Source: a virus (lineage: Duplodnaviria; Heunggongvirae; Uroviricota; Caudoviricetes). From it: DNA of 31,126 nucleotides. The notes under the pieces were generated by a model. That model worked only from the letters and a program-made list of their open reading frames with translations, did no database searches and had not been told where the DNA came from. The stretch is taken from IMG/VR virus record IMGVR_UViG_2874968258_000011; one strand, 5' to 3'. How positions within the stretch are numbered: position 1 is the stretch's first letter; each line of letters starts with the position of its first letter. Made by a program: the position numbers and the translations under genes. Shown in pieces: positions 2,266-30,635 of the stretch.

Positions 2266-3084
2266 TTAAGCAGCCATCTGATGATATTTTTCCCTGAAGG
2301 CTGCCGGGGAGATATTCCCCAGACGAGAGTGACGACGCTGACGATTGTAGAAAATCTCAATGTATTCCCGTATTACTGAGATGGCTTCATCCCGGTTATT
2401 AAAACGATAGTGGCTCAGGCTCTCATTTTTCAGCGTTCCCCAGAAGCTTTCCATCGGAGCGTTGTCGTAACAGTTACCTTTACGCGACATTGATGTTTTC
2501 AGACCAGACTGCTCCTGTATGACCCGGTAATCGTATGCGCAGTACTGTGAACCTCGATCAGAGTGGTGGATTAGCCCGGCAGGTGGGCGCTGGCTCCTGA
2601 GCGCCATAAACAGGGCTTTACCTGTCAGCTCTTTTGTCATGCGCTCTCCCATGGCGTAGCCGACAATTTCGCACGTATAAACATCTTTGATGCCAGCGAG
2701 GTACAACCATCCCTCCTGTGTGGCAACATACGTCAGGTCCGCCACCCAGACCTGATTTGGTGCTGTAGGAGCGAACGTCTGGTTCAGCAGATTTGGCGCA
2801 ACTGGCAGATTGTGGTTCGAGTTCGTAGTCGCTCTGAACTTGCGTTTCTGCTTACAGCGTAGCCTTAGCTCCTTACGAAGACGTGCCAGTCGGTCACGAC
2901 CAACGATGATGCCATTCTCTGCCAGCTCCGTCTGGAGCCGCCGGGTTCCATATGTTTCGCGAGTGCGGATATGTGCCACCTTAATCTCCAGTTTTAGCCG
3001 CTCATCACTTTGTTTTCTGTCTGAGGGTTCATGCTGTACCCAGTTGTAATAACCGCTCCTGGATACACCAAATACCTGACACAT
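2266..3084 (-). CDS. IS600 OrfB (DDE transposase catalytic part; OrfAB by -1 frameshift)
   Basis: 272-aa ORF; A-run slippery site at end of orfA. Confidence 0.9.
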   Translation of the reverse strand: MCQVFGVSRSGYYNWVQHEPSDRKQSDERLKLEIKVAHIRTRETYGTRRLQTELAENGIIVGRDRLARLRKELRLRCKQKRKFRATTNSNHNLPVAPNLLNQTFAPTAPNQVWVADLTYVATQEGWLYLAGIKDVYTCEIVGYAMGERMTKELTGKALFMALRSQRPPAGLIHHSDRGSQYCAYDYRVIQEQSGLKTSMSRKGNCYDNAPMESFWGTLKNESLSHYRFNNRDEAISVIREYIEIFYNRQRRHSRLGNISPAAFREKYHQMAA

Positions 3085-3119
3085 CGCTTCAATGGGAAAT
3101 TGTTGTCGCCATTGTTCGA

Positions 3120-3422
3120 TTAACGCGTATTTTTCAGCGACTCCTGTGCAAAATACGCTGTTGCTTTTTTTAATATATCTCGCTCAAGGCGAGCTTCATT
3201 TAACGCCTTACGCAGTTGCAGAATTTCAGATTCCAGTTCAGCCACCGTGCGGGAACCAGGAGTACCGAGCCCTTTTCTGGCGGCGGTAACCCATTGTCCT
3301 AAAGTGCCTTCAGGAAGAGATAATCGGGAAGCGCCTTCACTGATCGAAAGTTGATTTTCAAGAACCGTTCTGACAGCTTCGGCTTTGAACTCTTTAGAGT
3401 AACGTTGGGTTTTTCTGCTCAT
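3120..3422 (-). CDS. IS600 OrfA (HTH transposase subunit)
   Basis: 100-aa ORF MSRKTQRYSKEFKAEAV…; variant with L at residue 21. Confidence 0.9.
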   Translation of the reverse strand: MSRKTQRYSKEFKAEAVRTVLENQLSISEGASRLSLPEGTLGQWVTAARKGLGTPGSRTVAELESEILQLRKALNEARLERDILKKATAYFAQESLKNTR

Positions 3423-3486
3423 TATTAGCTCCTTCTGATGCCATTCTATTTCAGGAAGGAGTGTCCGTTAAACTCAGGCTACCTCA

Positions 3487-3844
3487 TTCTGGCGAGTCGT
3501 TTTTTGGAGTGTTCGCGGGCTTTTTCCTCCGTCATCTGAATAATCAGCATATCAGCAGGATCGCAAATCACGTTGTAAATCACCCAGCCGTCAATCAGGC
3601 CGATAGTCTTGCCGGTTCGTGCCGGGCCAACAAATATCACTGCGTCGTATTCACGCGAGGCCAGGCAGTTCATCGGCTCAATAACATACGGTGCCACCAG
3701 CGGATCCCACGGGACTGAGTTCCCTGCCCCCATGGGCACCCGCATATACTGAGCAACGGCATCAGCAACCCGCATTCGTCTCGGTGCGCGAAGGATATAA
3801 CCTGAATCGGTTCGTGCTGCCTTTGCGGTTTCCTGATTCAGCAT
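3487..3844 (-). pseudogene. Terminase large subunit (gpA-like), N-terminal ~119 codons only; truncated at IS600
   Basis: ORF starts at stop of Nu1-like gene; pattern resembles lambda gpA N-terminus (W-D/E-x-L … Y-x-x-V … AR-x-G-x-T/SK); reading frame runs into IS600 end. Confidence 0.55.
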
Positions 3845-4481: not shown

Positions 4482-4775
<294 letters not shown>

Positions 4776-4793
4776 CTACCATTTGTTCTTTTT

Positions 4794-5612
4794 TTAAGCA
4801 GCCATCTGATGATATTTTTCCCTGAAGGCTGCCGGGGAGATATTCCCCAGACGAGAGTGACGACGCTGACGATTGTAGAAAATCTCAATGTATTCCCGTA
4901 TTACTGAGATGGCTTCATCCCGGTTATTAAAACGATAGTGGCTCAGGCTCTCATTTTTCAGCGTTCCCCAGAAGCTTTCCATCGGAGCGTTGTCGTAACA
5001 GTTACCTTTACGCGACATTGATGTTTTCAGACCAGACTGCTCCTGTATGACCCGGTAATCGTATGCGCAGTACTGTGAACCTCGATCAGAGTGGTGGATT
5101 AGCCCGGCAGGTGGGCGCTGGCTCCTGAGCGCCATAAACAGGGCTTTACCTGTCAGCTCTTTTGTCATGCGCTCTCCCATGGCGTAGCCGACAATTTCGC
5201 ACGTATAAACATCTTTGATGCCAGCGAGGTACAACCATCCCTCCTGTGTGGCAACATACGTCAGGTCCGCCACCCAGACCTGATTTGGTGCTGTAGGAGC
5301 GAACGTCTGGTTCAGCAGATTTGGCGCAACTGGCAGATTGTGGTTCGAGTTCGTAGTCGCTCTGAACTTGCGTTTCTGCTTACAGCGTAGCCTTAGCTCC
5401 TTACGAAGACGTGCCAGTCGGTCACGACCAACGATGATGCCATTCTCTGCCAGCTCCGTCTGGAGCCGCCGGGTTCCATATGTTTCGCGAGTGCGGATAT
5501 GTGCCACCTTAATCTCCAGTTTTAGCCGCTCATCACTTTGTTTTCTGTCTGAGGGTTCATGCTGTACCCAGTTGTAATAACCGCTCCTGGATACACCAAA
5601 TACCTGACACAT
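4794..5612 (-). CDS. IS600 OrfB
   Basis: 272-aa ORF identical to copy 1. Confidence 0.9.
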   Translation of the reverse strand: MCQVFGVSRSGYYNWVQHEPSDRKQSDERLKLEIKVAHIRTRETYGTRRLQTELAENGIIVGRDRLARLRKELRLRCKQKRKFRATTNSNHNLPVAPNLLNQTFAPTAPNQVWVADLTYVATQEGWLYLAGIKDVYTCEIVGYAMGERMTKELTGKALFMALRSQRPPAGLIHHSDRGSQYCAYDYRVIQEQSGLKTSMSRKGNCYDNAPMESFWGTLKNESLSHYRFNNRDEAISVIREYIEIFYNRQRRHSRLGNISPAAFREKYHQMAA

Positions 5613-5647
5613 CGCTTCAATGGGAAATTGTTGTCGCCATTGTTCGA

Positions 5648-5950
5648 TTAACGCGTATTTTTCAGCGACTCCTGTGCAAAATACGCTGTTGCTTTTTTTA
5701 ATATATCTCGCTCAAGGCGAGCTTCATTTAACGCCTTACGCAGTTGCAGAATTTCAGATTCCAGTTCAGCCACCGTGCGGGAACCAGGAGTACCGAGCCC
5801 TTTTCTGGCGGCGGTAACCCATTGTCCTAAAGTGCCTTCAGGAAGAGATAATCGGGAAGCGCCTTCACTGATCGAAAGTTGATTTTCAAGAACCGTTCTG
5901 ACAGCTTCGGCTTTGAACTCTTTAGAGTAACGTTGGGTTTTTCTGCTCAT
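5648..5950 (-). CDS. IS600 OrfA
   Basis: Identical to copy 1 OrfA (L variant). Confidence 0.9.
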   Translation of the reverse strand: MSRKTQRYSKEFKAEAVRTVLENQLSISEGASRLSLPEGTLGQWVTAARKGLGTPGSRTVAELESEILQLRKALNEARLERDILKKATAYFAQESLKNTR

Positions 5951-6014
5951 TATTAGCTCCTTCTGATGCCATTCTATTTCAGGAAGGAGTGTCCGTTAAA
6001 CTCAGGCTACCTCA

Positions 6015-6549
6015 TGGCTTCCTCTCTGTTCATCGGCAGATAGCCTATTTCATCCAGGATCAACACCCGGGCATAACTCAGTTGCTGTAGCTGACGCTCC
6101 AGCCGGTTTTCCTGTTTCGCTTTCATCAGTGTCGCGATCAGTCTGTCCAGTGGCATAAACAGTACCCGATGTCCCGCATCCACCGCTTTCACGCCAAGAG
6201 CTATGGCCAGATGAGTTTTTCCGACACCAGGAGGGCCCAGCAGGATCACGTTTTCGCTGCGCTCCACGAACGCCAGACCAGCCAGTTCCCGGACAACCTT
6301 ACGGTCGATGCCCGGCTGGAAGGTAAAGTCGAACTGCTCCAGCGTTTTGACCCACGGCAGACGAGCCTGCTTCAGCCTGGACTCCATACCGCGCTGATGC
6401 CTGCCGTTCCATTCCTGCTGTAGCGCCATGCACAGGAACTCCCGGTAGTTCAGCTCTTTTTTAGCTGCCTGTTCCAGCAGGCTTTCAACGTGATAACTCA
6501 GATGCTCCATTTTCAGGCGACTCAGCAGGACTTCCAGTTCATGCATCAC
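6015..6549 (-). pseudogene. istB: istB N-terminal fragment (Walker A GPPGVGKT present)
   Basis: 180-aa ORF 6007..6549 whose last codons run into IS600. Confidence 0.8.
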
Positions 6550-9731: not shown

Positions 9732-9908
9732 AGCCTCACCTCCGCAAATAACGGATGGCGTAGTTTTACACTGAGAAATGAAAGGGATTTGAAAAGAAAA
9801 AAACGCAAAAGCGGGCGAAACGATATATACAGTAAGGAAAGCACTGAGGTAGCCTGAGTTTAACGGACACTCCTTCCTAAAATAGAATGGCATCAGAAGG
9901 AGCTAATA

Positions 9909-10211
9909 ATGAGCAGAAAAACCCAACGTTACTCTAAAGAGTTCAAAGCCGAAGCTGTCAGAACGGTTCCTGAAAATCAACTTTCGATCAGTGAAGGCGC
10001 TTCCCGATTATCTCTTCCTGAAGGCACTTTAGGACAATGGGTTACCGCCGCCAGAAAAGGGCTCGGTACTCCTGGTTCCCGCACGGTGGCTGAACTGGAA
10101 TCTGAAATTCTGCAACTGCGTAAGGCGTTAAATGAAGCTCGCCTTGAGCGAGATATATTAAAAAAAGCAACAGCGTATTTTGCACAGGAGTCGCTGAAAA
10201 ATACGCGTTAA
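9909..10211 (+). CDS. IS600 OrfA (P variant at residue 21)
   Basis: 100-aa ORF. Confidence 0.9.
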   Translation: MSRKTQRYSKEFKAEAVRTVPENQLSISEGASRLSLPEGTLGQWVTAARKGLGTPGSRTVAELESEILQLRKALNEARLERDILKKATAYFAQESLKNTR

Positions 10212-10302
10212 TCGAACAATGGCGACAACAATTTCCCATTGAAGCGATGTGTCAGGTATTTGGTGTATCCAGGAGCGGTTATTACAACTGGGTATGAAGT
10301 GG

Positions 10303-11471
<1,169 letters not shown>

Positions 11472-12542
11472 TGGAGCACCTGTGTTGTTCTGAGGTGAGC
11501 ATATCACCTCTGTTCAGGTGGCCAAATTCAGTGTGCCACTTCAGTACAGCATGAACCCTCAGACAGAAAACAAAGTGATGAGCGGCTAAAACTGGAGATT
11601 AAGGTGGCACATATCCGCACTCGCGAAACATATGGAACCCGGCGGCTCCAGACGGAGCTGGCAGAGAATGGCATCATCGTTGGTCGTGACCGACTGGCAC
11701 GTCTTCGTAAGGAGCTAAGGCTACGCTGTAAGCAGAAACGCAAGTTCAGAGCGACTACGAACTCGAACCACAATCTGCCAGTTGCGCCAAATCTGCTGAA
11801 CCAGACGTTCGCTCCTACAGCACCAAATCAGGTCTGGGTGGCGGACCTGACGTATGTTGCCACACAGGAGGGATGGTTGTACCTCGCTGGCATCAAAGAT
11901 GTTTATACGTGCGAAATTGTCGGCTACGCCATGGGAGAGCGCATGACAAAAGAGCTGACAGGTAAAGCCCTGTTTATGGCGCTCAGGAGCCAGCGCCCAC
12001 CTGCCGGGCTAATCCACCACTCTGATCGAGGTTCACAGTACTGCGCATACGATTACCGGGTCATACAGGAGCAGTCTGGTCTGAAAACATCAATGTCGCG
12101 TAAAGGTAACTGTTACGACAACGCTCCGATGGAAAGCTTCTGGGGAACGCTGAAAAATGAGAGCCTGAGCCACTATCGTTTTAATAACCGGGATGAAGCC
12201 ATCTCAGTAATACGGGAATACATTGAGATTTTCTACAATCGTCAGCGTCGTCACTCTCGTCTGGGGAATATCTCCCCGGCAGCCTTCAGGGAAAAATATC
12301 ATCAGATGGCTGCTTAAAAAAAGAACAAATGGTAGTGTCCGCTATTGCCAGTACACCTCACACTCTATCCAACAAACCACCCACAGTTAATCGGAATAAA
12401 AGCAGAGTGCTTATGAATGATCGCACGCCCGAAGGTTAGTATTTCTGCACAGCAATTTTGCAAAAAAAGGCGATCATTCATAACTTAAACGTCTTTCAGT
12501 CACTCCGGGATTTCCCATCATCGCAGACTGAAAGACTCTGAC

Positions 12543-12617
<75 letters not shown>

Positions 12618-12620
12618 ATA

Positions 12621-12696
<76 letters not shown>

Positions 12697-12698
12697 GC

Positions 12699-12775
12699 TG
12701 GCCCACCACCGAGGACTCGAACCTCGCACCGTCAACTTAGAAGGTTGATGCTCTATCCGGATGAGCTAGTGGTGG
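12699..12775 (-). tRNA. tRNA-Arg (anticodon UCU); unusual C1:G72
   Basis: Acceptor CCACCAC/GTGGTGG, anticodon loop CTTCTAA, T-arm CGAGGTTCGAGTCCTCG, CCA. Confidence 0.75.
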
Positions 12776-12776
12776 T

Positions 12777-12853
12777 TGGTGGCCCTTGCTGGACTTGAAC
12801 CAGCGACCTGGCGATTATGAGTCGCTCGCTCTGACCAACTGAGCTAAAGGGCC
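12777..12853 (-). tRNA. tRNA with CAU anticodon, ileX-like (Ile2/lysidine type; elongator Met not excluded)
   Basis: GGCCCTTTAGCTCAG…GACTCATAATCGCC…GGTTCAAGTCCAGCAAGGGCCACCA. Confidence 0.75.
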
Positions 12854-14767: not shown

Positions 14768-14873
14768 GATGCCTCCAGGTTTATAAGTACAAACGGTTAT
14801 ATCAACATAGAGACAAAAGGTGATGCTGCCAACTTACTGATTTAGTGTATGATGGTGTTTTTGAGGTGCTCCA

Positions 14874-15149
14874 GTGGCTTCTGTTTCTATCAGCTGTCCC
14901 TCCTGTTCAGCTACTGACGGGGTGGTGCGTAACGGCAAAAGCACTGCCGGACATCAGCGCTATCTCTGCTCTCACTGCCGTAAAACATGGCAACTGCAGT
15001 TCACTTACACCGCTTCCCAACCCGGTACGCACCAGAAAATCATTGATATGGCCATGAATGGCGTTGGATGCCGGGCAACTGCACGCATTATGGGCGTTGG
15101 CCTCAACACGATTTTACGTCACTTAAAAAACTCAGGCCGCAGTCGGTAA
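14874..15149 (+). CDS. insA: IS1 InsA
   Basis: 91-aa ORF. Confidence 0.9.
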
Positions 15150-15571
15150 CCTCGCGCATACAGCCGGGCAGTGACGTCATCGTCTGCGCGGAAATGGACG
15201 AACAGTGGGGCTATGTCGGGGCTAAATCGCGCCAGCGCTGGCTGTTTTACGCGTATGACAGTCTCCGGAAGACGGTTGTTGCGCACGTATTCGGTGAACG
15301 CACTATGGCGACGCTGGGGCGTCTTATGAGCCTGCTGTCACCCTTTGACGTGGTGATATGGATGACGGATGGCTGGCCGCTGTATGAATCCCGCCTGAAG
15401 GGAAAGCTGCACGTAATCAGCAAGCGATATACGCAGCGAATTGAGCGGCATAACCTGAATCTGAGGCAGCACCTGGCACGGCTGGGACGGAAGTCGCTGT
15501 CGTTCTCAAAATCGGTGGAGCTGCATGACAAAGTCATCGGGCATTATCTGAACATAAAACACTATCAATAA
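15068..15571 (+). CDS. insB: IS1 InsB
   Basis: 167-aa ORF. Confidence 0.9.
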
Positions 15572-15678
15572 GTTGGAGTCATTACCAAAAAAACCGCCGA
15601 AACGGGTTAAGTGCGGGTGCGTTGAGGATGCCTGACACATCAAAGGTGGCGGGAGATTACTCTCCCGCCTGGTCACTC

Positions 15679-15834
15679 TTACTCTCTAGATTCGTAGTCT
15701 ACGAAAACAGCGACCTCCGTCTGGCCGATTCGGATTCGTACCTCGCAGAGGTCTTTCCTCGTTACCAGTGCCGTCACAATGACGGTTAAACAGATGACGA
15801 TCAGGGCGATTAACATCGCCTTTTGCTGCTTCAT
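15679..15834 (-). CDS. hok: Hok/Gef-family type I toxin (51 aa)
   Basis: MKQQKAMLIALIVICLTVIVTALVTRKDLCEVRIRIGQTEVAVFVDYESRE closely resembles Gef/HokC; AGGAG RBS; ORF-track entry 15679..15891 is an upstream extension. Confidence 0.85.
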   Translation of the reverse strand: MKQQKAMLIALIVICLTVIVTALVTRKDLCEVRIRIGQTEVAVFVDYESRE

Positions 15835-16172
15835 AGCCTGCTTCTCCTTGCCTTTCGGCACGTAAGAGGCTAACCTACATTTGTGAGACATAGATTGGGC
15901 CTCAGATTAATGTTAAGCGTCTTGCAGGACGCGTAATGTTAACTGGGGCTTTTCTCTGTCTGCCTTACAGTGACATACCCGAGGCAGACAGCCTCAAGCA
16001 CCCGCAGCAATCTTACCGACACCGATAAGAAAACGCTATTTTTTATTGCCAGCACCATCTATCCAGGCTAGTTTATCTGCGTCAGAACGGCGCAATGCGC
16101 TCGCCTGAGATACGTTTACTTGCCATGGTAACAACAGGTAACGGCAATTGCTGTTTCTGTTTTGTTTCCTTC

Positions 16173-16203
16173 AAAAACCCCGGACCATCAATCCGGGGTT
16201 TTT
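16173..16203. terminator. Bidirectional intrinsic terminator (stem CCCCGGA/TCCGGGG, A5 on one side, T5 on the other)
   Basis: 7-bp GC-rich perfect stem flanked by A-run and T-run. Confidence 0.6.
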
Positions 16204-16208
16204 GTTTG

Positions 16209-16292
16209 TTAACCCCAACGGCAAATCGAATACACCACCAGCGCCACCGCCATCGCAATTCCTACCGTGGTGAATGCCTCAGGCCAGGTCAT
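16209..16292 (-). CDS. Candidate 27-aa hydrophobic peptide MTWPEAFTTVGIAMAVALVVYSICRWG
   Basis: ATG overlaps stop of DUF551-like gene (ATGA); AGGAGGTG located 6 nt upstream inside preceding gene; terminator immediately downstream; below ORF-track size cutoff. Confidence 0.4.
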   Translation of the reverse strand: MTWPEAFTTVGIAMAVALVVYSICRWG

Positions 16293-16654
16293 TGATTCAC
16301 CTCCTGCGGTGGTTCCGGTAGCGGCATCCAGTGAGTTGAGCTCTCTACTTCAACGCCGTCTTTGTCCACAAAAGCCATCTTATTCCCGCCACGAGTGGGG
16401 CAAAAAACCTTATCCCAGGAACCGGGGAATACATTCCCGAGATCATCGAGAAGAATCACATCGCAATATTCAGCAGGAACTGCATCACTACAGCTTATCC
16501 AGCCAGCCGGAGCTACCGGAGAGTTGCCAGCCTTACGCATGGCCATTTCCACGATTTCAACCATATCTCCTGGTGGAATTTTACAAAGTTGCCCAATACA
16601 TTTCTGCTGCCTGGCATATTCGAGAATGTGCTCCAGTTTGGTTCGATTAATCAT
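16289..16654 (-). CDS. DUF551-like prophage protein
   Basis: 121-aa ORF with C-terminal W…THWMPLPEPP-type motif. Confidence 0.55.
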   Translation of the reverse strand: MINRTKLEHILEYARQQKCIGQLCKIPPGDMVEIVEMAMRKAGNSPVAPAGWISCSDAVPAEYCDVILLDDLGNVFPGSWDKVFCPTRGGNKMAFVDKDGVEVESSTHWMPLPEPPQEVNQ

Positions 16655-17319
16655 TATTTATCTCCCTTAAGCATGGCAGCGCGGCAGGCGTTCCAGCCAT
16701 CAACATAATCAAACGTATTACTATCGTTTGGCCCGATTTCATCCGGCACTATCGGCTCTGGTTGGATAGTGACGTTGGCAAAGGCAGCACGCAAACCGGT
16801 TTTAATTTCTTCGATTTCATCAGAGCCAAGCGATGAATCTGACAGTGCGTGATGGAATGCGTAAGCCATGTCGTCGTTTACTGCAACCGGCACTGCCGGC
16901 GCTGCGTAAAGCGGTGTTATATCTGCCCGAAAATCACATGCTTTATGCAGTCGTACCCAACACTCAACTTCCGCTTTGTCAAAATATATAGCAGTGAACG
17001 TATTAGATTCCTGGTCAACTTGAGTAAACGTCACCTTCCACGCTACAGCTACGGCTTTCCATCCATCAGGTTGTCGCATTCGCGGGGCAGCATAAAGCTC
17101 ATGCATTCCATCAGGCAGCGAGTGACCCACATACTCACCGAACCCGTCAATACACATGCCCCCATCTTCAACAATGCATTCCGCTACAGGCTCTGCTTCC
17201 AGTGATGCCAGAGCGATAAGCGCCAGTTCACGAATTTCACCGCCGTCTATATCGTCAATATCATCGCGGCCAGAAATGTTAGCCAGCCATTGCAGTCGCT
17301 CTTTGGTAATAGTGGTCAT
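16654..17319 (-). CDS. Hypothetical prophage protein with duplicated LYAAP motif
   Basis: 221-aa acidic ORF; start overlaps HNH stop; stop overlaps DUF551 start. Confidence 0.55.
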   Translation of the reverse strand: MTTITKERLQWLANISGRDDIDDIDGGEIRELALIALASLEAEPVAECIVEDGGMCIDGFGEYVGHSLPDGMHELYAAPRMRQPDGWKAVAVAWKVTFTQVDQESNTFTAIYFDKAEVECWVRLHKACDFRADITPLYAAPAVPVAVNDDMAYAFHHALSDSSLGSDEIEEIKTGLRAAFANVTIQPEPIVPDEIGPNDSNTFDYVDGWNACRAAMLKGDK

Positions 17320-17681
17320 GCCGTAGCCCCTTCTTGATATTTTTCAAACCAGAACACAACCGGGTCAGATTTCATTTCAACCAATCCCATACGAACCAGC
17401 GCTTTGCCTTTCCCGGACGCAAGGAATTCACGACGACCATCACTGATAATTCGTCGATAATCTTCCAGGCTACTGCAATGCTTGTGCAGATTGCATGGGT
17501 GGCATGCTGGTACCATGTTGGATATATCGTCACGTTCCTGGTGAAGCATATTTCCATCAAAACGAATGACCGGTTTTACATGGTCTGCATGCCACTTTTC
17601 GCCAAGTTCGCAGCCGCAATAAGCGCAGCGACCACCGAACTTCATGCGCAGTTCTGCACGTTGTTTTTTCGTCAGTGCCAT
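17316..17681 (-). CDS. HNH endonuclease
   Basis: CAYCGCEL…WHADHVKP…CHPCNLHK zinc-finger/HNH motif; start at internal ATG with AAGGA RBS. Confidence 0.75.
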   Translation of the reverse strand: MALTKKQRAELRMKFGGRCAYCGCELGEKWHADHVKPVIRFDGNMLHQERDDISNMVPACHPCNLHKHCSSLEDYRRIISDGRREFLASGKGKALVRMGLVEMKSDPVVFWFEKYQEGATA

Positions 17682-17682
17682 A

Positions 17683-17901
17683 TCAGCTTTCCTTATACGG
17701 ATTAATTTTATTGTGCAGTGTGTTGAATGACGCCCATACCACGTCGTTATACAATTCAATAACTGGCTCAATTATTTTTCCGATTATCCAGACAAAAATT
17801 AGCGGGGATATCGGTGTCATCAACACGATAAACAGAATGAGAAACAGGAATTCTGTTGTTCTACTCTTTCGCGGATATTTTTTTCTAAATAATGTAACCA
17901 T
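17683..17901 (-). CDS. Hypothetical small membrane protein
   Basis: 72-aa ORF with hydrophobic segment FLFLILFIVLMTPISPLIFVWIIG; ends 2 nt before HNH start. Confidence 0.35.
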   Translation of the reverse strand: MVTLFRKKYPRKSRTTEFLFLILFIVLMTPISPLIFVWIIGKIIEPVIELYNDVVWASFNTLHNKINPYKES

Positions 17902-17993
17902 TCATTACCGCCCTTTCGAGCGGTCTCCTGATGATTTGAGGGTGCAGAAATCCCTCCGGTTAAGGATTAAATTTTTAACAGTGCTAAATTTAA

Positions 17994-18334
17994 TTATTCA
18001 GTTCTGGATTTTGTCGCCCTGCGTATCCGCGCTTTCGCGTTACGCTCAATCTGTATCAGCTTTTCTATATTTCTCCGCCTTTCCTGTTCCTCCTGGCGCA
18101 ATAGCCTTACATCATCTGCCAGTCTGGTTTCTCTTTTTGCCACAGAGAGCATCCAGTCAAACGGCTCCACAACCGCACCGCAGATTTTACAGCGGACCTG
18201 ACGCTCTTTTTCGTCAACCCGGACAGAGGCGTGATGGCAATATGGTCTTTCCGATGGTTCATAAAGAAAATTAACCTGATTACGTGGGTCATCCTCTTTT
18301 ACCGGAAATAAAACGATATTGCTTAACTCATCTT
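17994..18334 (-). pseudogene. 5'-truncated gene remnant (Cys/His then charged helical tail), cut by IS1 copy C
   Basis: Open frame …RPYCHHASVRVDEKERQVRCKICGAVVEPFDWMLSVAKRETRLADDVRLLRQEEQERRRN… continues without start codon into IS1 end. Confidence 0.35.
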
Positions 18335-18389
18335 GGTGATGCTGCCAACTTACTGATTTAGTGTATGATGGTGTTTTTGAGGTGCTCCA

Positions 18390-18665
18390 GTGGCTTCTGT
18401 TTCTATCAGCTGTCCCTCCTGTTCAGCTACTGACGGGGTGGTGCGTAACGGCAAAAGCACTGCCGGACATCAGCGCTATCTCTGCTCTCACTGCCGTAAA
18501 ACATGGCAACTGCAGTTCACTTACACCGCTTCTCAACCCGGTACGCACCAGAAAATCATTGATATGGCCATGAATGGCGTTGGATGCCGGGCAACTGCAC
18601 GCATTATGGGCGTTGGCCTCAACACGATTTTACGTCACTTAAAAAACTCAGGCCGCAGTCGGTAA
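18390..18665 (+). CDS. insA: IS1 InsA
   Basis: 91-aa ORF. Confidence 0.9.
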
Positions 18666-19087
18666 CCTCGCGCATACAGCCGGGCAGTGACGTCATCGTC
18701 TGCGCGGAAATGGACGAACAGTGGGGCTATGTCGGGGCTAAATCGCGCCAGCGCTGGCTGTTTTACGCGTATGACAGTCTCCGGAAGACGGTTGTTGCGC
18801 ACGTATTCGGTGAACGCACTATGGCGACGCTGGGGCGTCTTATGAGCCTGCTGTCACCCTTTGACGTGGTGATATGGATGACGGATGGCTGGCCGCTGTA
18901 TGAATCCCGCCTGAAGGGAAAGCTGCACGTAATCAGCAAGCGATATACGCAGCGAATTGAGCGGCATAACCTGAATCTGAGGCAGCACCTGGCACGGCTG
19001 GGACGGAAGTCGCTGTCGTTCTCAAAATCGGTGGAGCTGCATGACAAAGTCATCGGGCATTATCTGAACATAAAACACTATCAATAA
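18584..19087 (+). CDS. insB: IS1 InsB
   Basis: 167-aa ORF. Confidence 0.9.
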
Positions 19088-19164
19088 GTTGGAGTCATTA
19101 TGAGGTAGCCTGAGTTTAACGGACACTCCTTCCTGAAATAGAATGGCATCAGAAGGAGCTAATA

Positions 19165-19467
19165 ATGAGCAGAAAAACCCAACGTTACTCTAAAGAGTTC
19201 AAAGCCGAAGCTGTCAGAACGGTTCCTGAAAATCAACTTTCGATCAGTGAAGGCGCTTCCCGATTATCTCTTCCTGAAGGCACTTTAGGACAATGGGTTA
19301 CCGCCGCCAGAAAAGGGCTCGGTACTCCTGGTTCCCGCACGGTGGCTGAACTGGAATCTGAAATTCTGCAACTGCGTAAGGCGTTAAATGAAGCTCGCCT
19401 TGAGCGAGATATATTAAAAAAAGCAACAGCGTATTTTGCACAGGAGTCGCTGAAAAATACGCGTTAA
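19165..19467 (+). CDS. IS600 OrfA (P variant)
   Basis: 100-aa ORF. Confidence 0.9.
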   Translation: MSRKTQRYSKEFKAEAVRTVPENQLSISEGASRLSLPEGTLGQWVTAARKGLGTPGSRTVAELESEILQLRKALNEARLERDILKKATAYFAQESLKNTR

Positions 19468-19502
19468 TCGAACAATGGCGACAACAATTTCCCATTGAAG
19501 CG

Positions 19503-20321
19503 ATGTGTCAGGTATTTGGTGTATCCAGGAGCGGTTATTACAACTGGGTACAGCATGAACCCTCAGACAGAAAACAAAGTGATGAGCGGCTAAAACTGGA
19601 GATTAAGGTGGCACATATCCGCACTCGCGAAACATATGGAACCCGGCGGCTCCAGACGGAGCTGGCAGAGAATGGCATCATCGTTGGTCGTGACCGACTG
19701 GCACGTCTTCGTAAGGAGCTAAGGCTACGCTGTAAGCAGAAACGCAAGTTCAGAGCGACTACGAACTCGAACCACAATCTGCCAGTTGCGCCAAATCTGC
19801 TGAACCAGACGTTCGCTCCTACAGCACCAAATCAGGTCTGGGTGGCGGACCTGACGTATGTTGCCACACAGGAGGGATGGTTGTACCTCGCTGGCATCAA
19901 AGATGTTTATACGTGCGAAATTGTCGGCTACGCCATGGGAGAGCGCATGACAAAAGAGCTGACAGGTAAAGCCCTGTTTATGGCGCTCAGGAGCCAGCGC
20001 CCACCTGCCGGGCTAATCCACCACTCTGATCGAGGTTCACAGTACTGCGCATACGATTACCGGGTCATACAGGAGCAGTCTGGTCTGAAAACATCAATGT
20101 CGCGTAAAGGTAACTGTTACGACAACGCTCCGATGGAAAGCTTCTGGGGAACGCTGAAAAATGAGAGCCTGAGCCACTATCGTTTTAATAACCGGGATGA
20201 AGCCATCTCAGTAATACGGGAATACATTGAGATTTTCTACAATCGTCAGCGTCGTCACTCTCGTCTGGGGAATATCTCCCCGGCAGCCTTCAGGGAAAAA
20301 TATCATCAGATGGCTGCTTAA
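19503..20321 (+). CDS. IS600 OrfB
   Basis: 272-aa ORF. Confidence 0.9.
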   Translation: MCQVFGVSRSGYYNWVQHEPSDRKQSDERLKLEIKVAHIRTRETYGTRRLQTELAENGIIVGRDRLARLRKELRLRCKQKRKFRATTNSNHNLPVAPNLLNQTFAPTAPNQVWVADLTYVATQEGWLYLAGIKDVYTCEIVGYAMGERMTKELTGKALFMALRSQRPPAGLIHHSDRGSQYCAYDYRVIQEQSGLKTSMSRKGNCYDNAPMESFWGTLKNESLSHYRFNNRDEAISVIREYIEIFYNRQRRHSRLGNISPAAFREKYHQMAA

Positions 20322-20364
20322 AAAAAGAACAAATGGTAGTGTCCGCTATTGCCAGTACACCTCA

Positions 20365-21495: not shown

Positions 21496-22033
21496 GGTCT
21501 GTTACCCCCTGAAGCCTGGCGGGATCGCACTGTCCGGCAACGAGACGGTGTTAACCTGTCGGAGCAACGTCTCAGGCCGAACACCTTTCGGCGCGAACAG
21601 ACCCTGGTATTCATTGGCGATGCTGTGTCGAATCACCTGCTCAGGTGTAAAACCCTGCTGACGGAATTTTTCCAGTTCCCGTATCGCCCCGTTAGCGCCC
21701 TGCTCCGTTCGAATCGGTTTTCGCAATGCCTGCCTGAACTGGACCCACTCATGCCAGAGTGTTTCTGGCAACCAGTCGGGCAGATCAACTGACAACGGGT
21801 CAAATTTTTTCTGGCGAACAGCCCCACCGATAACCAGAATTCCCTGCTCGGTGTGCCTTGCGATATCACTGCGCCGCAAGACACATATCCCGGTTTCAAC
21901 AGCACCGATTTTGAGCAGTGATTTCTGTCGCGGAGAATTTCGGTCAAGCTCGCTCCCACACCGGACACCGTTCCTGTCAGTCACGACGATTGAGGTGTAC
22001 TGGCAATAGCGGACACTACCATTTGTTCTTTTT

Positions 22034-22852
22034 TTAAGCAGCCATCTGATGATATTTTTCCCTGAAGGCTGCCGGGGAGATATTCCCCAGACGAGAGTGA
22101 CGACGCTGACGATTGTAGAAAATCTCAATGTATTCCCGTATTACTGAGATGGCTTCATCCCGGTTATTAAAACGATAGTGGCTCAGGCTCTCATTTTTCA
22201 GCGTTCCCCAGAAGCTTTCCATCGGAGCGTTGTCGTAACAGTTACCTTTACGCGACATTGATGTTTTCAGACCAGACTGCTCCTGTATGACCCGGTAATC
22301 GTATGCGCAGTACTGTGAACCTCGATCAGAGTGGTGGATTAGCCCGGCAGGTGGGCGCTGGCTCCTGAGCGCCATAAACAGGGCTTTACCTGTCAGCTCT
22401 TTTGTCATGCGCTCTCCCATGGCGTAGCCGACAATTTCGCACGTATAAACATCTTTGATGCCAGCGAGGTACAACCATCCCTCCTGTGTGGCAACATACG
22501 TCAGGTCCGCCACCCAGACCTGATTTGGTGCTGTAGGAGCGAACGTCTGGTTCAGCAGATTTGGCGCAACTGGCAGATTGTGGTTCGAGTTCGTAGTCGC
22601 TCTGAACTTGCGTTTCTGCTTACAGCGTAGCCTTAGCTCCTTACGAAGACGTGCCAGTCGGTCACGACCAACGATGATGCCATTCTCTGCCAGCTCCGTC
22701 TGGAGCCGCCGGGTTCCATATGTTTCGCGAGTGCGGATATGTGCCACCTTAATCTCCAGTTTTAGCCGCTCATCACTTTGTTTTCTGTCTGAGGGTTCAT
22801 GCTGTACCCAGTTGTAATAACCGCTCCTGGATACACCAAATACCTGACACAT
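22034..22852 (-). CDS. IS600 OrfB
   Basis: 272-aa ORF. Confidence 0.9.
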   Translation of the reverse strand: MCQVFGVSRSGYYNWVQHEPSDRKQSDERLKLEIKVAHIRTRETYGTRRLQTELAENGIIVGRDRLARLRKELRLRCKQKRKFRATTNSNHNLPVAPNLLNQTFAPTAPNQVWVADLTYVATQEGWLYLAGIKDVYTCEIVGYAMGERMTKELTGKALFMALRSQRPPAGLIHHSDRGSQYCAYDYRVIQEQSGLKTSMSRKGNCYDNAPMESFWGTLKNESLSHYRFNNRDEAISVIREYIEIFYNRQRRHSRLGNISPAAFREKYHQMAA

Positions 22853-22887
22853 CGCTTCAATGGGAAATTGTTGTCGCCATTGTTCGA

Positions 22888-23190
22888 TTAACGCGTATTT
22901 TTCAGCGACTCCTGTGCAAAATACGCTGTTGCTTTTTTTAATATATCTCGCTCAAGGCGAGCTTCATTTAACGCCTTACGCAGTTGCAGAATTTCAGATT
23001 CCAGTTCAGCCACCGTGCGGGAACCAGGAGTACCGAGCCCTTTTCTGGCGGCGGTAACCCATTGTCCTAAAGTGCCTTCAGGAAGAGATAATCGGGAAGC
23101 GCCTTCACTGATCGAAAGTTGATTTTCAGGAACCGTTCTGACAGCTTCGGCTTTGAACTCTTTAGAGTAACGTTGGGTTTTTCTGCTCAT
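22888..23190 (-). CDS. IS600 OrfA (P variant)
   Basis: 100-aa ORF. Confidence 0.9.
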   Translation of the reverse strand: MSRKTQRYSKEFKAEAVRTVPENQLSISEGASRLSLPEGTLGQWVTAARKGLGTPGSRTVAELESEILQLRKALNEARLERDILKKATAYFAQESLKNTR

Positions 23191-23980
23191 TATTAGCTCC
23201 TTCTGATGCCATTCTATTTCAGGAAGGAGTGTCCGTTAAACTCAGGCTACCTCAGATATCAATCCGCCCTCCGCAACCGTCACCACGCTCTGGCACCGGA
23301 TACTCACGACAGACATCCAGGCCAGCAGCCTGCAACGCAACCACCGCAGAATTACAAAATTCCGCTGCAGTACCGCCAGATAATCTCCCCTCAAGCACTC
23401 CAGCCACAAAATCCCGAAACTCCCTTCCGGAAGGGAAGGGTTTGGGATGGGTTAGATCTGTTTTTAGATCTTTATCTGTATCTTTATTAGTTGCCTTTGT
23501 GTTGGCATCATGTTCGAACATCACTCCAACATCTGTTTGAACACCTGTTAAATTTCTCTCTTGTTTTGTTTGAACATCTGCTTCCTTTCTGCTTCTTCTG
23601 GCCTGAACAGATGCTTTTCCTGCGGCTGATTTTTTGGTTAATTTTTCTCTGACAGATGCCAGATCTTCCTCAATCCGAAGATGCATCCATTCGTCGCCGT
23701 TATCACAAAAAAACTCCCGCAAGGATGGTTCAACATCAACCCATCGCTCGTTAGTCAGACGGGCAATTTTTGCCAACCTGTTTTTGGGTATTGGCTTTCC
23801 TGTTTGCCAGTAATTGAACATCAGCAACAAATACGCGCCGTGCTCCTCTGCTGACAAATGCATGGTGTCAGCCAGGTAATCAGCTATGTACAGTTGCATG
23901 TATGGTAATGCGGCCATAATTGCCCCGTATGATGCTGCCCGGTTGCTTAGAATAAGCACAAACAGCATGGAAACTTTTGC

Positions 23981-27647: not shown

Positions 27648-28493
27648 ATGTTGAATGTAGCTATTGAAAACCAGAACGGGTGGAATTATAGTGCACCTGC
27701 ACCTCATAAAACGGGTGCCGGGATTGCTACCCCGAAGTCATTCACGGCGCATAACCGCGCTCAGGCGGTTTTTTTATGCGTAATGCACAGCCACATTCAA
27801 ATTATGGTGGGGCGTGCGGGGCAGTCGCAAGACTGGCCGGGTTCCGTGATGACCGGTTGTAGCAACCCTGTACGTCTCACCACCCATGAGATTGCTACCT
27901 CCGGTGGTGAGTTAATCAAATTCATCGCGGAGGCTGCCATCATGGCTACTACCCTTTCTCACCCTTGTGTAACCGTAGAAAACGGTCGCGCTGTCACTAC
28001 GTCTGTTGCGGTTGCAGAGTTCTTCCACAAACGACACGACAATGTGTTACGTGCCATCGCAAATATTGAATGCTCAGATAAATTTACTGCCCTCAATTTT
28101 GAAGCGAGCGAATACACCGACTCAATCGGGCGCAAACTCCCAATGTACCAAATCACCAAAAACGGCTTCGTTTTCCTGGTTATGGGCTTCACTGGCAAAA
28201 AAGCCGCTGCATTCAAAGAAGCCTACATTGCTGAGTTCGACCGCATGGAGGCCGAACTGCGCCAGAATAACACCCCACCTGCTGACAAGATGATTCCGGG
28301 TGATGGTCGCACTCTGGTTGTTCACTTCGACAAATTCGGCAATGTCGAATTCACCGAAACCGTTCCTGATGGCGCACTGGTCTGTACCCTGGAGACTTTC
28401 CGGTTTTATCTGGAAAAACAGGGATGGACTCTTGTTAACCGGGGCGCAATTAAAAATATGACTGTGGAACAATTACTCAAAATTCATTGTTGA
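27648..28493 (+). CDS. Rha-family phage regulatory protein / antirepressor-like; alternative internal start at 27942
   Basis: Rha-like segment VTVENGRAVTTSVAVAEFFHKRHDNVLRAI begins near residue 105; both 27648 and 27942 ATGs have RBS. Confidence 0.5.
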   Translation: MLNVAIENQNGWNYSAPAPHKTGAGIATPKSFTAHNRAQAVFLCVMHSHIQIMVGRAGQSQDWPGSVMTGCSNPVRLTTHEIATSGGELIKFIAEAAIMATTLSHPCVTVENGRAVTTSVAVAEFFHKRHDNVLRAIANIECSDKFTALNFEASEYTDSIGRKLPMYQITKNGFVFLVMGFTGKKAAAFKEAYIAEFDRMEAELRQNNTPPADKMIPGDGRTLVVHFDKFGNVEFTETVPDGALVCTLETFRFYLEKQGWTLVNRGAIKNMTVEQLLKIHC

Positions 28494-29240: not shown

Positions 29241-29435
29241 AAAAAAGAAAGCCTGCACACTGTGCAGGCCTGAGTGAAGAACCTGGGACATTTATTCATC
29301 ACTCGCAGTAATTTTAATCTGAGTTGAGGTTAAAAAACAATGAGCACCGATAAACAAGTTTACCCACTGTATGAGGTAGCCTGAGTTTAACGGACACTCC
29401 TTCCTGAAATAGAATGGCATCAGAAGGAGCTAATA

Positions 29436-29738
29436 ATGAGCAGAAAAACCCAACGTTACTCTAAAGAGTTCAAAGCCGAAGCTGTCAGAACGGTTCCTGA
29501 AAATCAACTTTCGATCAGTGAAGGCGCTTCCCGATTATCTCTTCCTGAAGGCACTTTAGGACAATGGGTTACCGCCGCCAGAAAAGGGCTCGGTACTCCT
29601 GGTTCCCGCACGGTGGCTGAACTGGAATCTGAAATTCTGCAACTGCGTAAGGCGTTAAATGAAGCTCGCCTTGAGCGAGATATATTAAAAAAAGCAACAG
29701 CGTATTTTGCACAGGAGTCGCTGAAAAATACGCGTTAA
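29436..29738 (+). CDS. IS600 OrfA (P variant)
   Basis: 100-aa ORF. Confidence 0.9.
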   Translation: MSRKTQRYSKEFKAEAVRTVPENQLSISEGASRLSLPEGTLGQWVTAARKGLGTPGSRTVAELESEILQLRKALNEARLERDILKKATAYFAQESLKNTR

Positions 29739-29773
29739 TCGAACAATGGCGACAACAATTTCCCATTGAAGCG

Positions 29774-30592
29774 ATGTGTCAGGTATTTGGTGTATCCAGG
29801 AGCGGTTATTACAACTGGGTACAGCATGAACCCTCAGACAGAAAACAAAGTGATGAGCGGCTAAAACTGGAGATTAAGGTGGCACATATCCGCACTCGCG
29901 AAACATATGGAACCCGGCGGCTCCAGACGGAGCTGGCAGAGAATGGCATCATCGTTGGTCGTGACCGACTGGCACGTCTTCGTAAGGAGCTAAGGCTACG
30001 CTGTAAGCAGAAACGCAAGTTCAGAGCGACTACGAACTCGAACCACAATCTGCCAGTTGCGCCAAATCTGCTGAACCAGACGTTCACTCCTACAGCACCA
30101 AATCAGGTCTGGGTGGCGGACCTGACGTATGTTGCCACACAGGAGGGATGGTTGTACCTCGCTGGCATCAAAGATGTTTATACGTGCGAAATTGTCGGCT
30201 ACGCCATGGGAGAGCGCATGACAAAAGAGCTGACAGGTAAAGCCCTGTTTATGGCGCTCAGGAGCCAGCGCCCACCTGCCGGGCTAATCCACCACTCTGA
30301 TCGAGGTTCACAGTACTGCGCATACGATTACCGGGTCATACAGGAGCAGTCTGGTCTGAAAACATCAATGTCGCGTAAAGGTAACTGTTACGACAACGCT
30401 CCGATGGAAAGCTTCTGGGGAACGCTGAAAAATGAGAGCCTGAGCCACTATCGTTTTAATAACCGGGATGAAGCCATCTCAGTAATACGGGAATACATTG
30501 AGATTTTCTACAATCGTCAGCGTCGTCACTCTCGTCTGGGGAATATCTCCCCGGCAGCCTTCAGGGAAAAATATCATCAGATGGCTGCTTAA
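29774..30592 (+). CDS. IS600 OrfB
   Basis: 272-aa ORF. Confidence 0.9.
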   Translation: MCQVFGVSRSGYYNWVQHEPSDRKQSDERLKLEIKVAHIRTRETYGTRRLQTELAENGIIVGRDRLARLRKELRLRCKQKRKFRATTNSNHNLPVAPNLLNQTFTPTAPNQVWVADLTYVATQEGWLYLAGIKDVYTCEIVGYAMGERMTKELTGKALFMALRSQRPPAGLIHHSDRGSQYCAYDYRVIQEQSGLKTSMSRKGNCYDNAPMESFWGTLKNESLSHYRFNNRDEAISVIREYIEIFYNRQRRHSRLGNISPAAFREKYHQMAA

Positions 30593-30635
30593 AAAAAGAA
30601 CAAATGGTAGTGTCCGCTATTGCCAGTACACCTCA

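Follow-up and report, generated by a model that had tools for sequence, protein, structure and literature searches.

Organisation of the gene string and its surroundings

The window, i.e., the whole 31,126-nucleotide stretch of virus record IMGVR_UViG_2874968258_000011 that was analysed, is an IS-riddled, decayed Rac-type lambdoid prophage located at ttcA in Shigella/E. coli, and thousands of Shigella contigs hold proteins identical to those it encodes. According to the ORF list and the sequence, the minus strand of positions 16209–17901 carries five consecutive ORFs, all at the coordinates originally assigned to them. The features of the string and its surroundings are as follows:

18335..19100, (+), IS1 copy (self-BLAST, intact-copy comparison, InsA/InsB ORFs)
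17994..18334, (-), upstream neighbour, gene of a 118-aa CxxC...CxxC protein (phrog_1621, E 5.7e-54)
17683..17901, (-), DUF4014 gene, 72 aa (Pfam PF13198, E 1.3e-25; phrog_1832, E 1.5e-44)
17685-17683 to 17681, (-), DUF4014/HNH junction: stop TGA at 17685-17683, one spacer base, HNH ATG at 17681
17316..17681, (-), stand-alone zinc-ribbon HNH (beta-beta-alpha-Me) endonuclease, 121 aa (PF01844, phrog_2118)
17319 to 17316, (-), HNH/221-aa junction: common ATGA, ATG at 17319, stop ending at 17316
16654..17319, (-), 221-aa mosaic protein with Ea22/EaA-type modules (module map from 120 homologues)
16654, (-), 221-aa/DUF551 junction: common TAATG with this single shared base
16289..16654, (-), DUF551 protein, 121 aa (Pfam PF04448, E 3.4e-19)
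16292 to 16289, (-), DUF551/27-codon ORF junction: common ATGA, ATG at 16292, stop ending at 16289
16209..16292, (-), 27-codon ORF MTWPEAFTTVGIAMAVALVVYSICRWG, last cistron, predicted single-pass membrane microprotein
16172..16204, no strand assigned, intrinsic terminator (A-tract, GC-rich hairpin, T-tract; scan match)
15679..16003, (-), hok/sok type I toxin-antitoxin locus, a neighbour directly past the terminator and outside the string
14819..15584, (+), second IS1 copy (self-BLAST, 99.9% identical to 18335-19100)

The stop/start spacings along the string are +1, -4, -1 and -4 nt, and a Shine–Dalgarno-like run is located 7 nt 5' of every internal start, within the final codons of the preceding gene (AAGGAA, GAAGGGG, AAGGGAG and AGGAGG, in order). 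The earlier note had described starts overlapping or abutting the previous stops in a single co-directional, translationally coupled string in a prophage accessory context. All of this was borne out, the four junctions being read directly from the sequence. The hairpin of the terminator begins 4 nt past the stop of the 27-codon ORF, closing the string, and its RNA fold was calculated at -25.2 kcal/mol (z -2.99). The same element is a terminator when read on either strand. Shadow ORFs on the plus strand across 16209–17901 had neither Pfam matches nor other family support.

An intact copy of the region was found in E. coli FDAARGOS_944, in which genes for cro-like, YdaT, YdaU, DnaC-like, DUF977 and 118-aa proteins are followed by DUF4014, HNH, the 221-aa gene, DUF551, hok, DUF1367, DUF1364 and DUF1133/Q, all on one strand and adjoining intR/ttcA. 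The string is thus positioned between the replication genes and hok/DUF1367/Q, and in this relative the five genes share one strand and belong to the early-right transcription unit. The window is 99.7% identical to the intact copy over 15584–18334 and is interrupted by IS1 and IS3-family copies. The 118-aa gene, separated from DUF4014 by a gap of 92 nt, has lost its start codon and first ~5 codons to IS1; its alignment with the intact copy ends at 18334 and its translation is without a start. The IS1 copy at 18335..19100, whose Pfam domains were found on the same element in loci L176-L178, is abutted by an IS3-family element at 19101 and cuts the string off from pR and the replication genes. 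Because the IS1 and the IS3-family element split the run from its promoter, the five-gene run is here probably a relic, poorly expressed and linked to hok/sok.

In the hok/sok locus, sok was recognised by Rfam RF01794 (118 bits at 15829-16003) and Hok by a weak NCBIfam Hok-family match (50.7 bits, under the 73-bit cut-off), and a Hok/Gef CDS is annotated in the intact copy. The two IS1 copies, in the same orientation, bound a 2751-bp block comprising hok/sok and the string. A composite transposon is not claimed for this block, as its flanks represent deletions relative to the intact prophage and no simple insertion.

Proteins encoded by the string

The assignments of an HNH nuclease, a DUF551 protein and a small membrane protein made in the earlier note were correct, each with a Pfam match. 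The DUF4014 protein matched PF13198 over its full length (90 bits, residues 1-71 on profile positions 1-71 of 72). It has a basic N-terminus and one predicted membrane helix at about residues 19-41, with a Kyte–Doolittle maximum of 2.68 in a 19-residue window. The GC content of its gene is ~36% vs. ~48% in the neighbours, and a literature search gave no mention of DUF4014.

Profile searches, which had been proposed for the 121-aa and 221-aa proteins, returned PF01844 (HNH) and PF04448 (DUF551) for the former two and no match in Pfam or NCBIfam for the latter. Each of phrog_60, 12449, 5117 and 660 matches only part of the 221-aa protein. It consists of modules A (1-46), A' (47-82, with LYAAP at its end), B (88-135) and C (136-221, with LYAAP at its start and GWNACRAAML at its end). 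The two LYAAP copies noticed previously are present at residues 75 and 137, and any repeated 5-mer occurs in just 1.8% of shuffles of the protein. LY[AT]AP recurs in homologues at module junctions, and the former description as an LYAAP-repeat protein was abandoned: LYAAP is a short linker motif where swappable modules join and not a repeat domain. Modules 1-46 and 136-221 form, in most relatives, the N-terminal half of DUF551 or Ead/Ea22 proteins. The protein has no Pfam match to the Ead/Ea22-like family PF13935, so it was not placed among coiled-coil Ead_Ea22 proteins, and it has modules in common with PF13935 carriers such as P0044, P0054 and P0093. Its AF2 model was too poor for a structure search (pLDDT 48.9), and a sequence search of PDB gave one chance-level match only (E 0.84).

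The DUF551 protein covers profile positions 1-68 of 68 in PF04448 (full-length, 69.9 bits). A conserved helical N-terminus is followed by a small beta domain whose ends are conserved and whose core is hypervariable. DUF551 proteins were the sole Foldseek matches among viral models, no solved structure matched, and the search of PDB by sequence was negative. We know of no biochemical function for any DUF551 protein; with its conserved ends, hypervariable core and no solved structural relative, it is a reasonable target for structural and interaction studies. Two existing annotation labels were set aside: "released from the phage upon host infection" in PHROG, for which no source was found in the literature, and "sugar acetyl transferase inhibitor" in GenBank.

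The HNH protein exceeded the PF01844 cut-off (28.2 bits, cut-off 21.4) and matched phrog_2118 with E 8.8e-57. In a comparison of 48 homologues with identity down to 48%, residues C19, C22, H31, D33, H34, N55, C60, C63, N64, K67 and R76 were invariant, including the catalytic D-H, the Asn, the metal-ligand residues and the CxxC...CxxC zinc ligands of His-Me finger nucleases. A longer ORF with a TTG start was rejected, as all 48 homologues start with MALTKKQ/MKLTK and RefSeq annotates 366 nt. No DNA-targeting domain could be recognised in the protein, and the search of PDB by sequence gave only a weak match (4H9D, E 0.058). Homologues of 47-73% identity are present in the nin or int-proximal early regions of Klebsiella, Yersinia and Comamonas prophages, two of the three (Klebsiella and Yersinia) also containing NinG. 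Identity of the HNH cassette stays at 96% or above in many different flanks, and a remnant left by deletion was seen; among ~170 loci, no exact pair of HNH-plus and HNH-minus alleles with identical flanks was found.

A conserved 27-codon ORF at the end of the string

The homology island of the last ORF extends exactly from its ATG to its stop. The ORF was found in at least four upstream and at least four downstream contexts with unrelated flanks, a Shine–Dalgarno sequence being present in each. It was detected in 1557 of 5426 E. coli genomes (~29% of complete genomes) and in 90 phage records, and is present in 933W, VT2-Sakai and BP-4795. Its 27-codon length is kept down to 59% amino acid identity (59-81%). 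Variable positions swap hydrophobic residues, with MxWPEAF and YSICRWG fixed (consensus M-[TSN]-W-P-[ED]-A-F...Y-S-I-C-R-W-G), and alternative frames contain stops. Synonymous differences exceeded non-synonymous ones in all 21 pairs (pS 0.34-0.67 vs. pN 0.06-0.26), with pairwise dN/dS of 0.06-0.57.

As judged from sequence comparison, the ORF is under purifying selection. It probably encodes a genuine, nearly always unannotated single-pass membrane microprotein and is the coupled cistron that closes Ea-type runs of lambdoid phages and phage-plasmids. A competing explanation assumes that it is not a gene and that a DNA/RNA element, either an operon-end/terminator-associated signal or a recombination junction, is conserved instead. 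Such an element would fit the almost complete lack of annotation and the location of the stop 4-12 nt from a terminator hairpin in two contexts. No family match was obtained in Pfam or NCBIfam, and the microprotein sequence was absent from literature text and from the supplementary files of the Ribo-seq study on small genes of Sakai; moreover, 27 codons provide little statistical power. This explanation is nevertheless considered rather unlikely in view of the ATG and stop bounding the homology in unrelated flanks, the length held despite divergence, the synonymous excess in every pair, the hydrophobic-for-hydrophobic exchanges between invariant ends, the stops in alternative frames and the Shine–Dalgarno sequence of each context. 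A microprotein downstream of ea22 in lambda was searched for and was absent. Because of the short distance between stop and terminator in two contexts, translation of the ORF could also control read-through into hok/nin/Q. Hardly any annotation, even of reference Stx phages, contains the conserved 27-codon gene, and its description may help annotators.

A probable run of independent cassettes from a lambdoid early-gene pool

The string was compared with ~170 related loci. HNH is the next gene in 33 of 80 DUF4014 loci and one of at least eight other genes follows in the remaining 47, the TGAnATG spacing after DUF4014 being constant in all 80. Across the 83 HNH loci, HNH is preceded by at least 10 different genes and followed by at least 10, with the -1/ATGA geometry in every case, and the downstream cassettes also occur behind other genes. 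[quoted passage not shown] The five components assort independently across the ~170 loci and are not co-inherited as a five-component system. Therefore, of the "five-ORF operon" proposed earlier, the coupled string stands and the fixed operon or system does not. The earlier note had also asked whether these are ordinary nin-region genes conserved in order, with known non-defence roles. This is half borne out: they are ordinary lambdoid early-region accessory genes, but they keep no fixed order and have no known roles. The statement that function is not assignable from sequence holds for the most part.

The five ORFs very probably represent a series of independent accessory cassettes belonging to the "Ea/exo-xis-type" pool of early genes in lambdoid phages. 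A single dedicated system, e.g., a nuclease module anchored in the membrane and serving superinfection exclusion, defence or anti-defence, in which HNH would be the effector and DUF4014 and the microprotein the membrane sensors/anchors, would account for the tight coupling of every junction. Such uniform coupling is also expected of a true multi-subunit system and counts against the cassette reading. DUF4014 and HNH are frequently adjacent, DUF4014 lying 5' of HNH in ~70% of the sampled HNH loci, a similarity-selected and not de-replicated set in which this is above random assortment. The hypervariable DUF551 core is as for an arms-race interface, and the HNH core resembles PtuB and retron-associated HNH proteins (E 3e-8 in PADLOC, 1.6e-4 in NCBIfam). 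However, each gene is found without the others in many combinations with unchanged junction geometry, and the block encodes no PtuA-type or other ATPase, reverse transcriptase or other Septu/retron partner. PADLOC defence models gave nothing for four of the five proteins and generic HNH-core matches for HNH only (the best with 31.6 bits over 69 of 227 positions), leaving no further defence signal. None of the five proteins passed any NCBIfam cut-off, the retron-HNH model TIGR02646 scoring 21.8, far under its cut-off of 52. A dedicated system is thus regarded as very unlikely.

With respect to the nuclease itself, HNH is an active-looking zinc-ribbon nuclease of the sporadic mobile kind found in early operons, as judged from its conserved residues. 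A selfish or competition nuclease acting on DNA, and not packaging, would be its most likely role, a view held with about even confidence. A Rap/NinG- or endonuclease VII-like enzyme serving recombination-dependent phage replication appears improbable. [quoted passage not shown] The two proteins belong to the same HNH fold class and are close in size (gp74 reportedly has ~119 aa), and both, as well as Septu PtuB, have an HNH core with four zinc cysteines. Yet HNH lies in early operons, at least 4 kb and many genes from terminase in every context seen, and never beside it as in the gp74-type terminase/portal arrangement; it also lacks the PtuA ATPase partner of Septu. The prophage carries a lambda-type small and large terminase pair, a type for which no HNH requirement is known. 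Near int in lambdoid phages, HNH genes of sporadic occurrence and apparent mobility have been described (PMC12315714). Like homing-type or "mobile HNH" genes, the one in the string is a small stand-alone HNH between unrelated genes, but it differs from the homing type in having neither a DNA-recognition domain nor a demonstrated target site.

The string is best regarded as ordinary, freely shuffled accessory cassettes and not as a new system. The same cassette pool supplies the exo-xis ("ea") region of lambda and Stx phages, which includes Ea22, EaA and the ORFs separating ea22 from xis. In 933W, BP-4795 and ArgO145 this region contains DUF4014, DUF551/EaA-like and Ead/Ea22-like genes and the 27-codon ORF, with K-G-E/D ends and tight packing like those of the string. 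It has been described as highly mosaic (PMC8614690, PMC7093339). The string, in contrast, is placed in the early-right operon past the replication genes and not between exo and xis, and DUF4014, this HNH and the 27-codon ORF are all absent from lambda itself. The lambda nin region (ren to ninI, between P and Q) has the same map position and the same logic of small dispensable genes, stop/start overlaps and internal terminators, but none of the five genes is a lambda nin gene and HNH misses the NinG model.

In the preferred cassette reading, the genes sit in a Rac-type prophage at the ren/nin position, flanked by the replication genes on one side and hok-DUF1367-DUF1364-Q on the other. After induction, pR transcription would read through the run and ribosomes would terminate and re-initiate along it, so the products would be made together and then act separately. 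The 221-aa and DUF551 proteins may be Ea22/EaA-like host-interaction proteins built from swappable modules, by analogy with the distant relatives Ea22 and YfdS; the studied relatives bias the lysis-lysogeny decision or host replication. Ea22 favours lysogeny (PMC10834534), and YfdS was linked to H2O2 tolerance and, when overexpressed with YfdQR, to inhibited replication initiation (PMC4776307). CPS-53 YfdS and Ea22_V2 have the DUF551 domain in common with the protein of the string, but only the domain ends are conserved and the cores differ. The DUF4014 protein and the 27-aa peptide are predicted to be single-pass inner-membrane proteins.

As a clean negative, a tidy five-gene "operon" with a nuclease turned out to be a sample of a shuffled cassette pool, and for this reason it has no priority as a candidate defence or competition system. 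Cassettes would be exchanged at conserved gene junctions, which have in common a ...K-G-E/D stop beside M-T-T-I/F-T-K/R-E, and relaxed homologous recombination is the likely route. Module shuffling was evident in the maps of the 221-aa protein against its 120 homologues, and Red and Rad52-like recombinases drive mosaicism via short stretches of diverged homology (PMC2327257, PMC3945230). DUF551 is carried by Ea22 variants, every one of which has K/R-G-E at its end (PMC10834534, PMC7093339). This tail on all Ea22 proteins is explained by its codons being the ribosome-binding site of the next coupled cassette, an explanation of possible help to phage annotators.

The coupled ORFs and their families

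Shuffled accessory cassettes (single genes with their own junctions, as exchanged among lambdoid phages) make up the string of minus-strand ORFs, an ordinary series in a decaying Rac-type prophage. The earlier note had described a five-ORF operon; on re-reading of the sequence, the five consecutive coupled ORFs and their junctions were exactly as written there, whereas the unit as such did not hold up.

ORFs of the string (ORF calls) and the terminator behind them
17901-17683, minus: DUF4014 ORF, 72 aa
17681-17316, minus: HNH ORF, 121 aa
17319-16654, minus: 221-aa ORF
16654-16289, minus: DUF551 ORF, 121 aa
16292-16209, minus: micro-ORF, 27 aa
16172-16204: terminator (A-tract/GC-hairpin/T-tract) beginning 4 nt after the last stop; -25.2 kcal/mol, z -3.0

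The junctions read in the sequence (1/2, 2/3, 3/4 and 4/5) are TGA-t-ATG, ATGA, TAATG and ATGA, and every internal start codon is preceded by a purine-rich Shine-Dalgarno run 7 nt upstream, within the last codons of the preceding gene. No family support was found for plus-strand ORFs across the region.

The four larger proteins belong, as exact members, to families already catalogued and nothing in the string points to a new system, the microprotein being a minor by-product. The domain calls made earlier from the sequence were right, with Pfam matches to DUF4014, HNH and DUF551. The 72-aa protein matched DUF4014 over the full length (PF13198, E 1.3e-25); its N-terminus is basic and it has a single segment that is strongly hydrophobic. 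The labels carried by DUF4014 (17683-17901), 'released from the phage upon host infection' in PHROG (a phage protein family set) and RefSeq and 'sugar acetyl transferase inhibitor' in GenBank, are unsupported; a literature search returned no mention of DUF4014 or of the former phrase. The HNH protein scored 28.2 bits, above the Pfam HNH cutoff of 21.4, and two CxxC pairs together with H31, D33, H34, N55 and N64 were invariant in 48 homologues with identity down to 48%. These residues suggest a zinc-ribbon His-Me nuclease that is active. The other 121-aa protein matched DUF551 (E 3.4e-19). In the alignment of the DUF551 family (A3), to which this protein (16289-16654, minus) belongs, the ends were near-invariant (…PVTPDGWISCSERMP and THWMPLPEPPQEV) and the core between them, of about 45 residues, was hypervariable and length-variable, as might be expected if cassettes had been replaced or a binding surface were under diversifying selection. 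PADLOC returned nothing for the five proteins beyond HNH-core matches to PtuB-type models.

Cassette exchange and the 221-aa protein

The loci compared comprised 80 viral contigs with the HNH gene (96-100% identity), 80 with the DUF4014 gene, and reference phages and genomes. DUF4014 lay upstream of HNH in most loci, with at least 10 other genes in that place across 22 loci, and at least 10 different genes followed HNH; these followers also occurred behind other genes. After DUF4014, HNH came next in 33 of the 80 loci and at least eight other genes in the remainder. The junction geometry did not vary with the partners: a single base separated HNH from the gene in front of it and DUF4014 from the gene behind it, and HNH joined its follower by ATGA. 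Cassettes that are unrelated to one another start with M-T-T-(I/F)-T-(K/R)-E and end with K-G-E/D (or K-E-S), as found at the window junctions 17681-17690, 17316-17330 and 16654-16668 and in the comparison loci L004-L169. The GC content of the DUF4014 gene is 36%, against about 48% in its neighbors, and in two Stx phages, ArgO145 and 933W, these cassettes are part of the early-left operon, in the interval from ea22 to xis/int. Together, the shuffled neighbors, constant junctions, shared cassette ends, early-left occurrence and DUF4014 GC content bear the signature of independently assorting cassettes, which would recombine at conserved gene boundaries. Such a reading is consistent with Red/Rad52-driven mosaicism (PMC2327257, PMC3945230), and the Stx exo-xis region has been described as highly mosaic (PMC8614690). 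A K/R-G-E tail common to all Ea22 proteins was reported as unexplained (PMC7093339). Since the codons for the final K-G-E double as the ribosome-binding site (AAGGAG) of the gene that follows, we infer that this tail is the coding imprint of that site of the next coupled cassette.

Profile searches of the 221-aa and 121-aa proteins confirmed HNH and DUF551 and gave no Pfam or NCBIfam match for the 221-aa protein; several PHROGs of unknown function matched the latter, each along part of its length only. It had been called a LYAAP-repeat protein. LYAAP does occur twice (residues 75 and 137), whereas just 1.8% of shuffles of the protein produced any repeated 5-mer, and because the DNA of the two copies differs at synonymous positions, the peptide is the conserved level. 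However, the surrounding sequences are not homologous to one another and the motif lies at module joins, so this is not a repeat protein. The mapping of 120 homologues revealed four modules (1-46, 47-82, 88-135 and 136-221), the joins being marked by the short motifs PVA(W/E), LY(A/T)AP and VVPDE...GWNACRAAML. Modules 1-46 and 136-221 are directly joined in most relatives, forming the N-terminal half of 250-290-aa DUF551 proteins, and in other relatives are fused to Ead/Ea22 or DUF550 domains. Going by this map, the 221-aa protein is a mosaic of Ea22/EaA-type modules. It is split from its usual DUF551 partner, here the separate next ORF. Its AlphaFold model was poor (pLDDT 48.9) and moderate at residues 91-138 only.

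Possible roles of the HNH protein

Packaging had been offered as one option for the HNH protein. More distant homologues in Klebsiella (61% identity, between DnaB and NinE/NinG/Q, in front of a DUF551 gene), Yersinia (73%, between DUF1367 and NinX, with NinG present too) and Comamonas (47%, near xis/int) had no terminase nearby, and a gp74-like packaging role is not supported. A selfish or competition nuclease is the most likely role, with chances about even. A lambdoid-phage survey likewise found HNH genes near int that are sporadic and apparently mobile, and cautioned against inferring function from position (PMC12315714). A recombination nuclease ranks second in likelihood and is rather improbable. 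Replacement of NinG/Rap is unlikely, the NinG profile score was under the cutoff, and for a Septu or retron component the partner genes are missing.

A 55-aa ORF in a second (Shigella) prophage (comparison loci L016, 3907-4071; L041, 242-406 and 3331-3495; L101) resembles an MTTITKERIE cassette at its start and carries the final ~35 HNH residues (…KYQEGATA) at its end, and is followed by a 114-aa gene and then the micro-ORF. The ORF is what a deletion has left of the HNH cassette and, as it retains the HNH C-terminus, shows that this cassette can be lost in such a way.

Decay of the prophage and the micro-ORF

The region is 99.8% identical to the Rac-type prophage at ttcA of E. coli FDAARGOS_944 (L001, an intact relative), in which cro-like, YdaT, YdaU, DnaC-like, DUF977, 118-aa CxxC, DUF4014, HNH, 221-aa, DUF551, hok, DUF1367, DUF1364, DUF1133/Q, tRNA, lysis and terminase genes follow one another on one strand. 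The string occupies the ren/nin place of the early-right operon. Exact copies of all five of its proteins are present in Shigella sonnei and S. flexneri, each protein on at least 1000 contigs. The IS load of the window is very heavy: IS1 is present three times and an IS3-family element of 1264 bp six times. YdaU, RecE and other prophage genes are interrupted.

Insertion sequences and RNA features of the window
1115-1880, 14819-15584, 18335-19100: IS1 copies
2223-3487, 4751-6015, 19101-20364, 21991-23254, 29372-30635: IS3-family element, 1264 bp, 100-aa and 272-aa ORFs
9845-10294 and 11544-12360: split IS3-family copy, interrupted by a nested ISEc52-like element
10293-11549: nested ISEc52-like element, 94% identity with the L001 ISEc52 region
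12546-12853, minus: four-gene tRNA cluster upstream of the lysis genes; its counterparts in the intact relative are tRNA-Ile/Arg/Thr/Gly
15679-16003, minus: hok/sok, an intact toxin-antitoxin locus of type I (Rfam sok, 118 bits), next to the terminator on its downstream side
27699-27887, plus: isrK (65 bits) and C4 antisense RNA (79 bits), side by side

The direct IS1 copies at 14819-15584 and 18335-19100 bracket a 2751-bp block that holds the five ORFs, hok/sok and the 118-aa gene, the last of these without its first ~5 codons. In three other Shigella chromosomes of about 4.8 Mb with an identical 221-aa protein (L176-L178), the whole immunity/replication segment, still present in the window, is deleted and the IS1-flanked block (118-aa remnant, DUF4014, HNH, 221-aa, DUF551, hok) almost adjoins ttcA and an integrase remnant. 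In the window, IS1 and an IS3-family element separate the string from the replication genes and pR, and on this ground it is most likely a poorly expressed relic in this genome. Its persistence beside the hok/sok addiction locus may be hitch-hiking. The micro-ORF-then-hok arrangement was also present in 933W (hokW/sokW) and a Qin-like prophage (hokD). The isrK/C4 pair, at the 5' end of ORF 27648-28493 (the counterpart of the Rha-family regulator of L001), resembles a P4/P1-type antisense immunity element, here inside a Rac-type prophage.

The micro-ORF is the sole item beyond routine here. Its 81 nt form a homology island limited by the ATG and the stop. The contexts around it are unrelated to one another, at least four of them upstream and four downstream, with a Shine-Dalgarno in each and an ATGA overlap with the preceding gene in nearly all. 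Of 5426 complete E. coli genomes, 1557 carried it, on plasmids as well, with a maximum of six copies per genome. A further 90 phage records contained it, including those of 933W, VT2-Sakai, BP-4795 and Min27, and it was absent from lambda. It was unannotated in all annotated loci inspected and called in a few GenBank records only. Variants down to 59% aa identity kept the 27 codons and the MxWPEAF and YSICRWG ends, with hydrophobic residues exchanged in the middle, and all 21 pairs showed pS of 0.34-0.67 versus pN of 0.06-0.26 (dN/dS 0.06-0.57). The micro-ORF probably encodes a genuine microprotein with a single membrane pass. Two of the contexts have a terminator, a different one in each, a few nt after its stop, so its translation could, speculatively, affect read-through as well. 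Occasional copies were pseudogenised, by a frameshift in L048/L052 and by a stop at codon 3 in Shigella phage POCJ13 (L088, 2501-2634). In the RefSeq record of POCJ13, a 42-aa ORF (gp73) is called on the opposite strand over the micro-ORF DNA, probably a mis-call.
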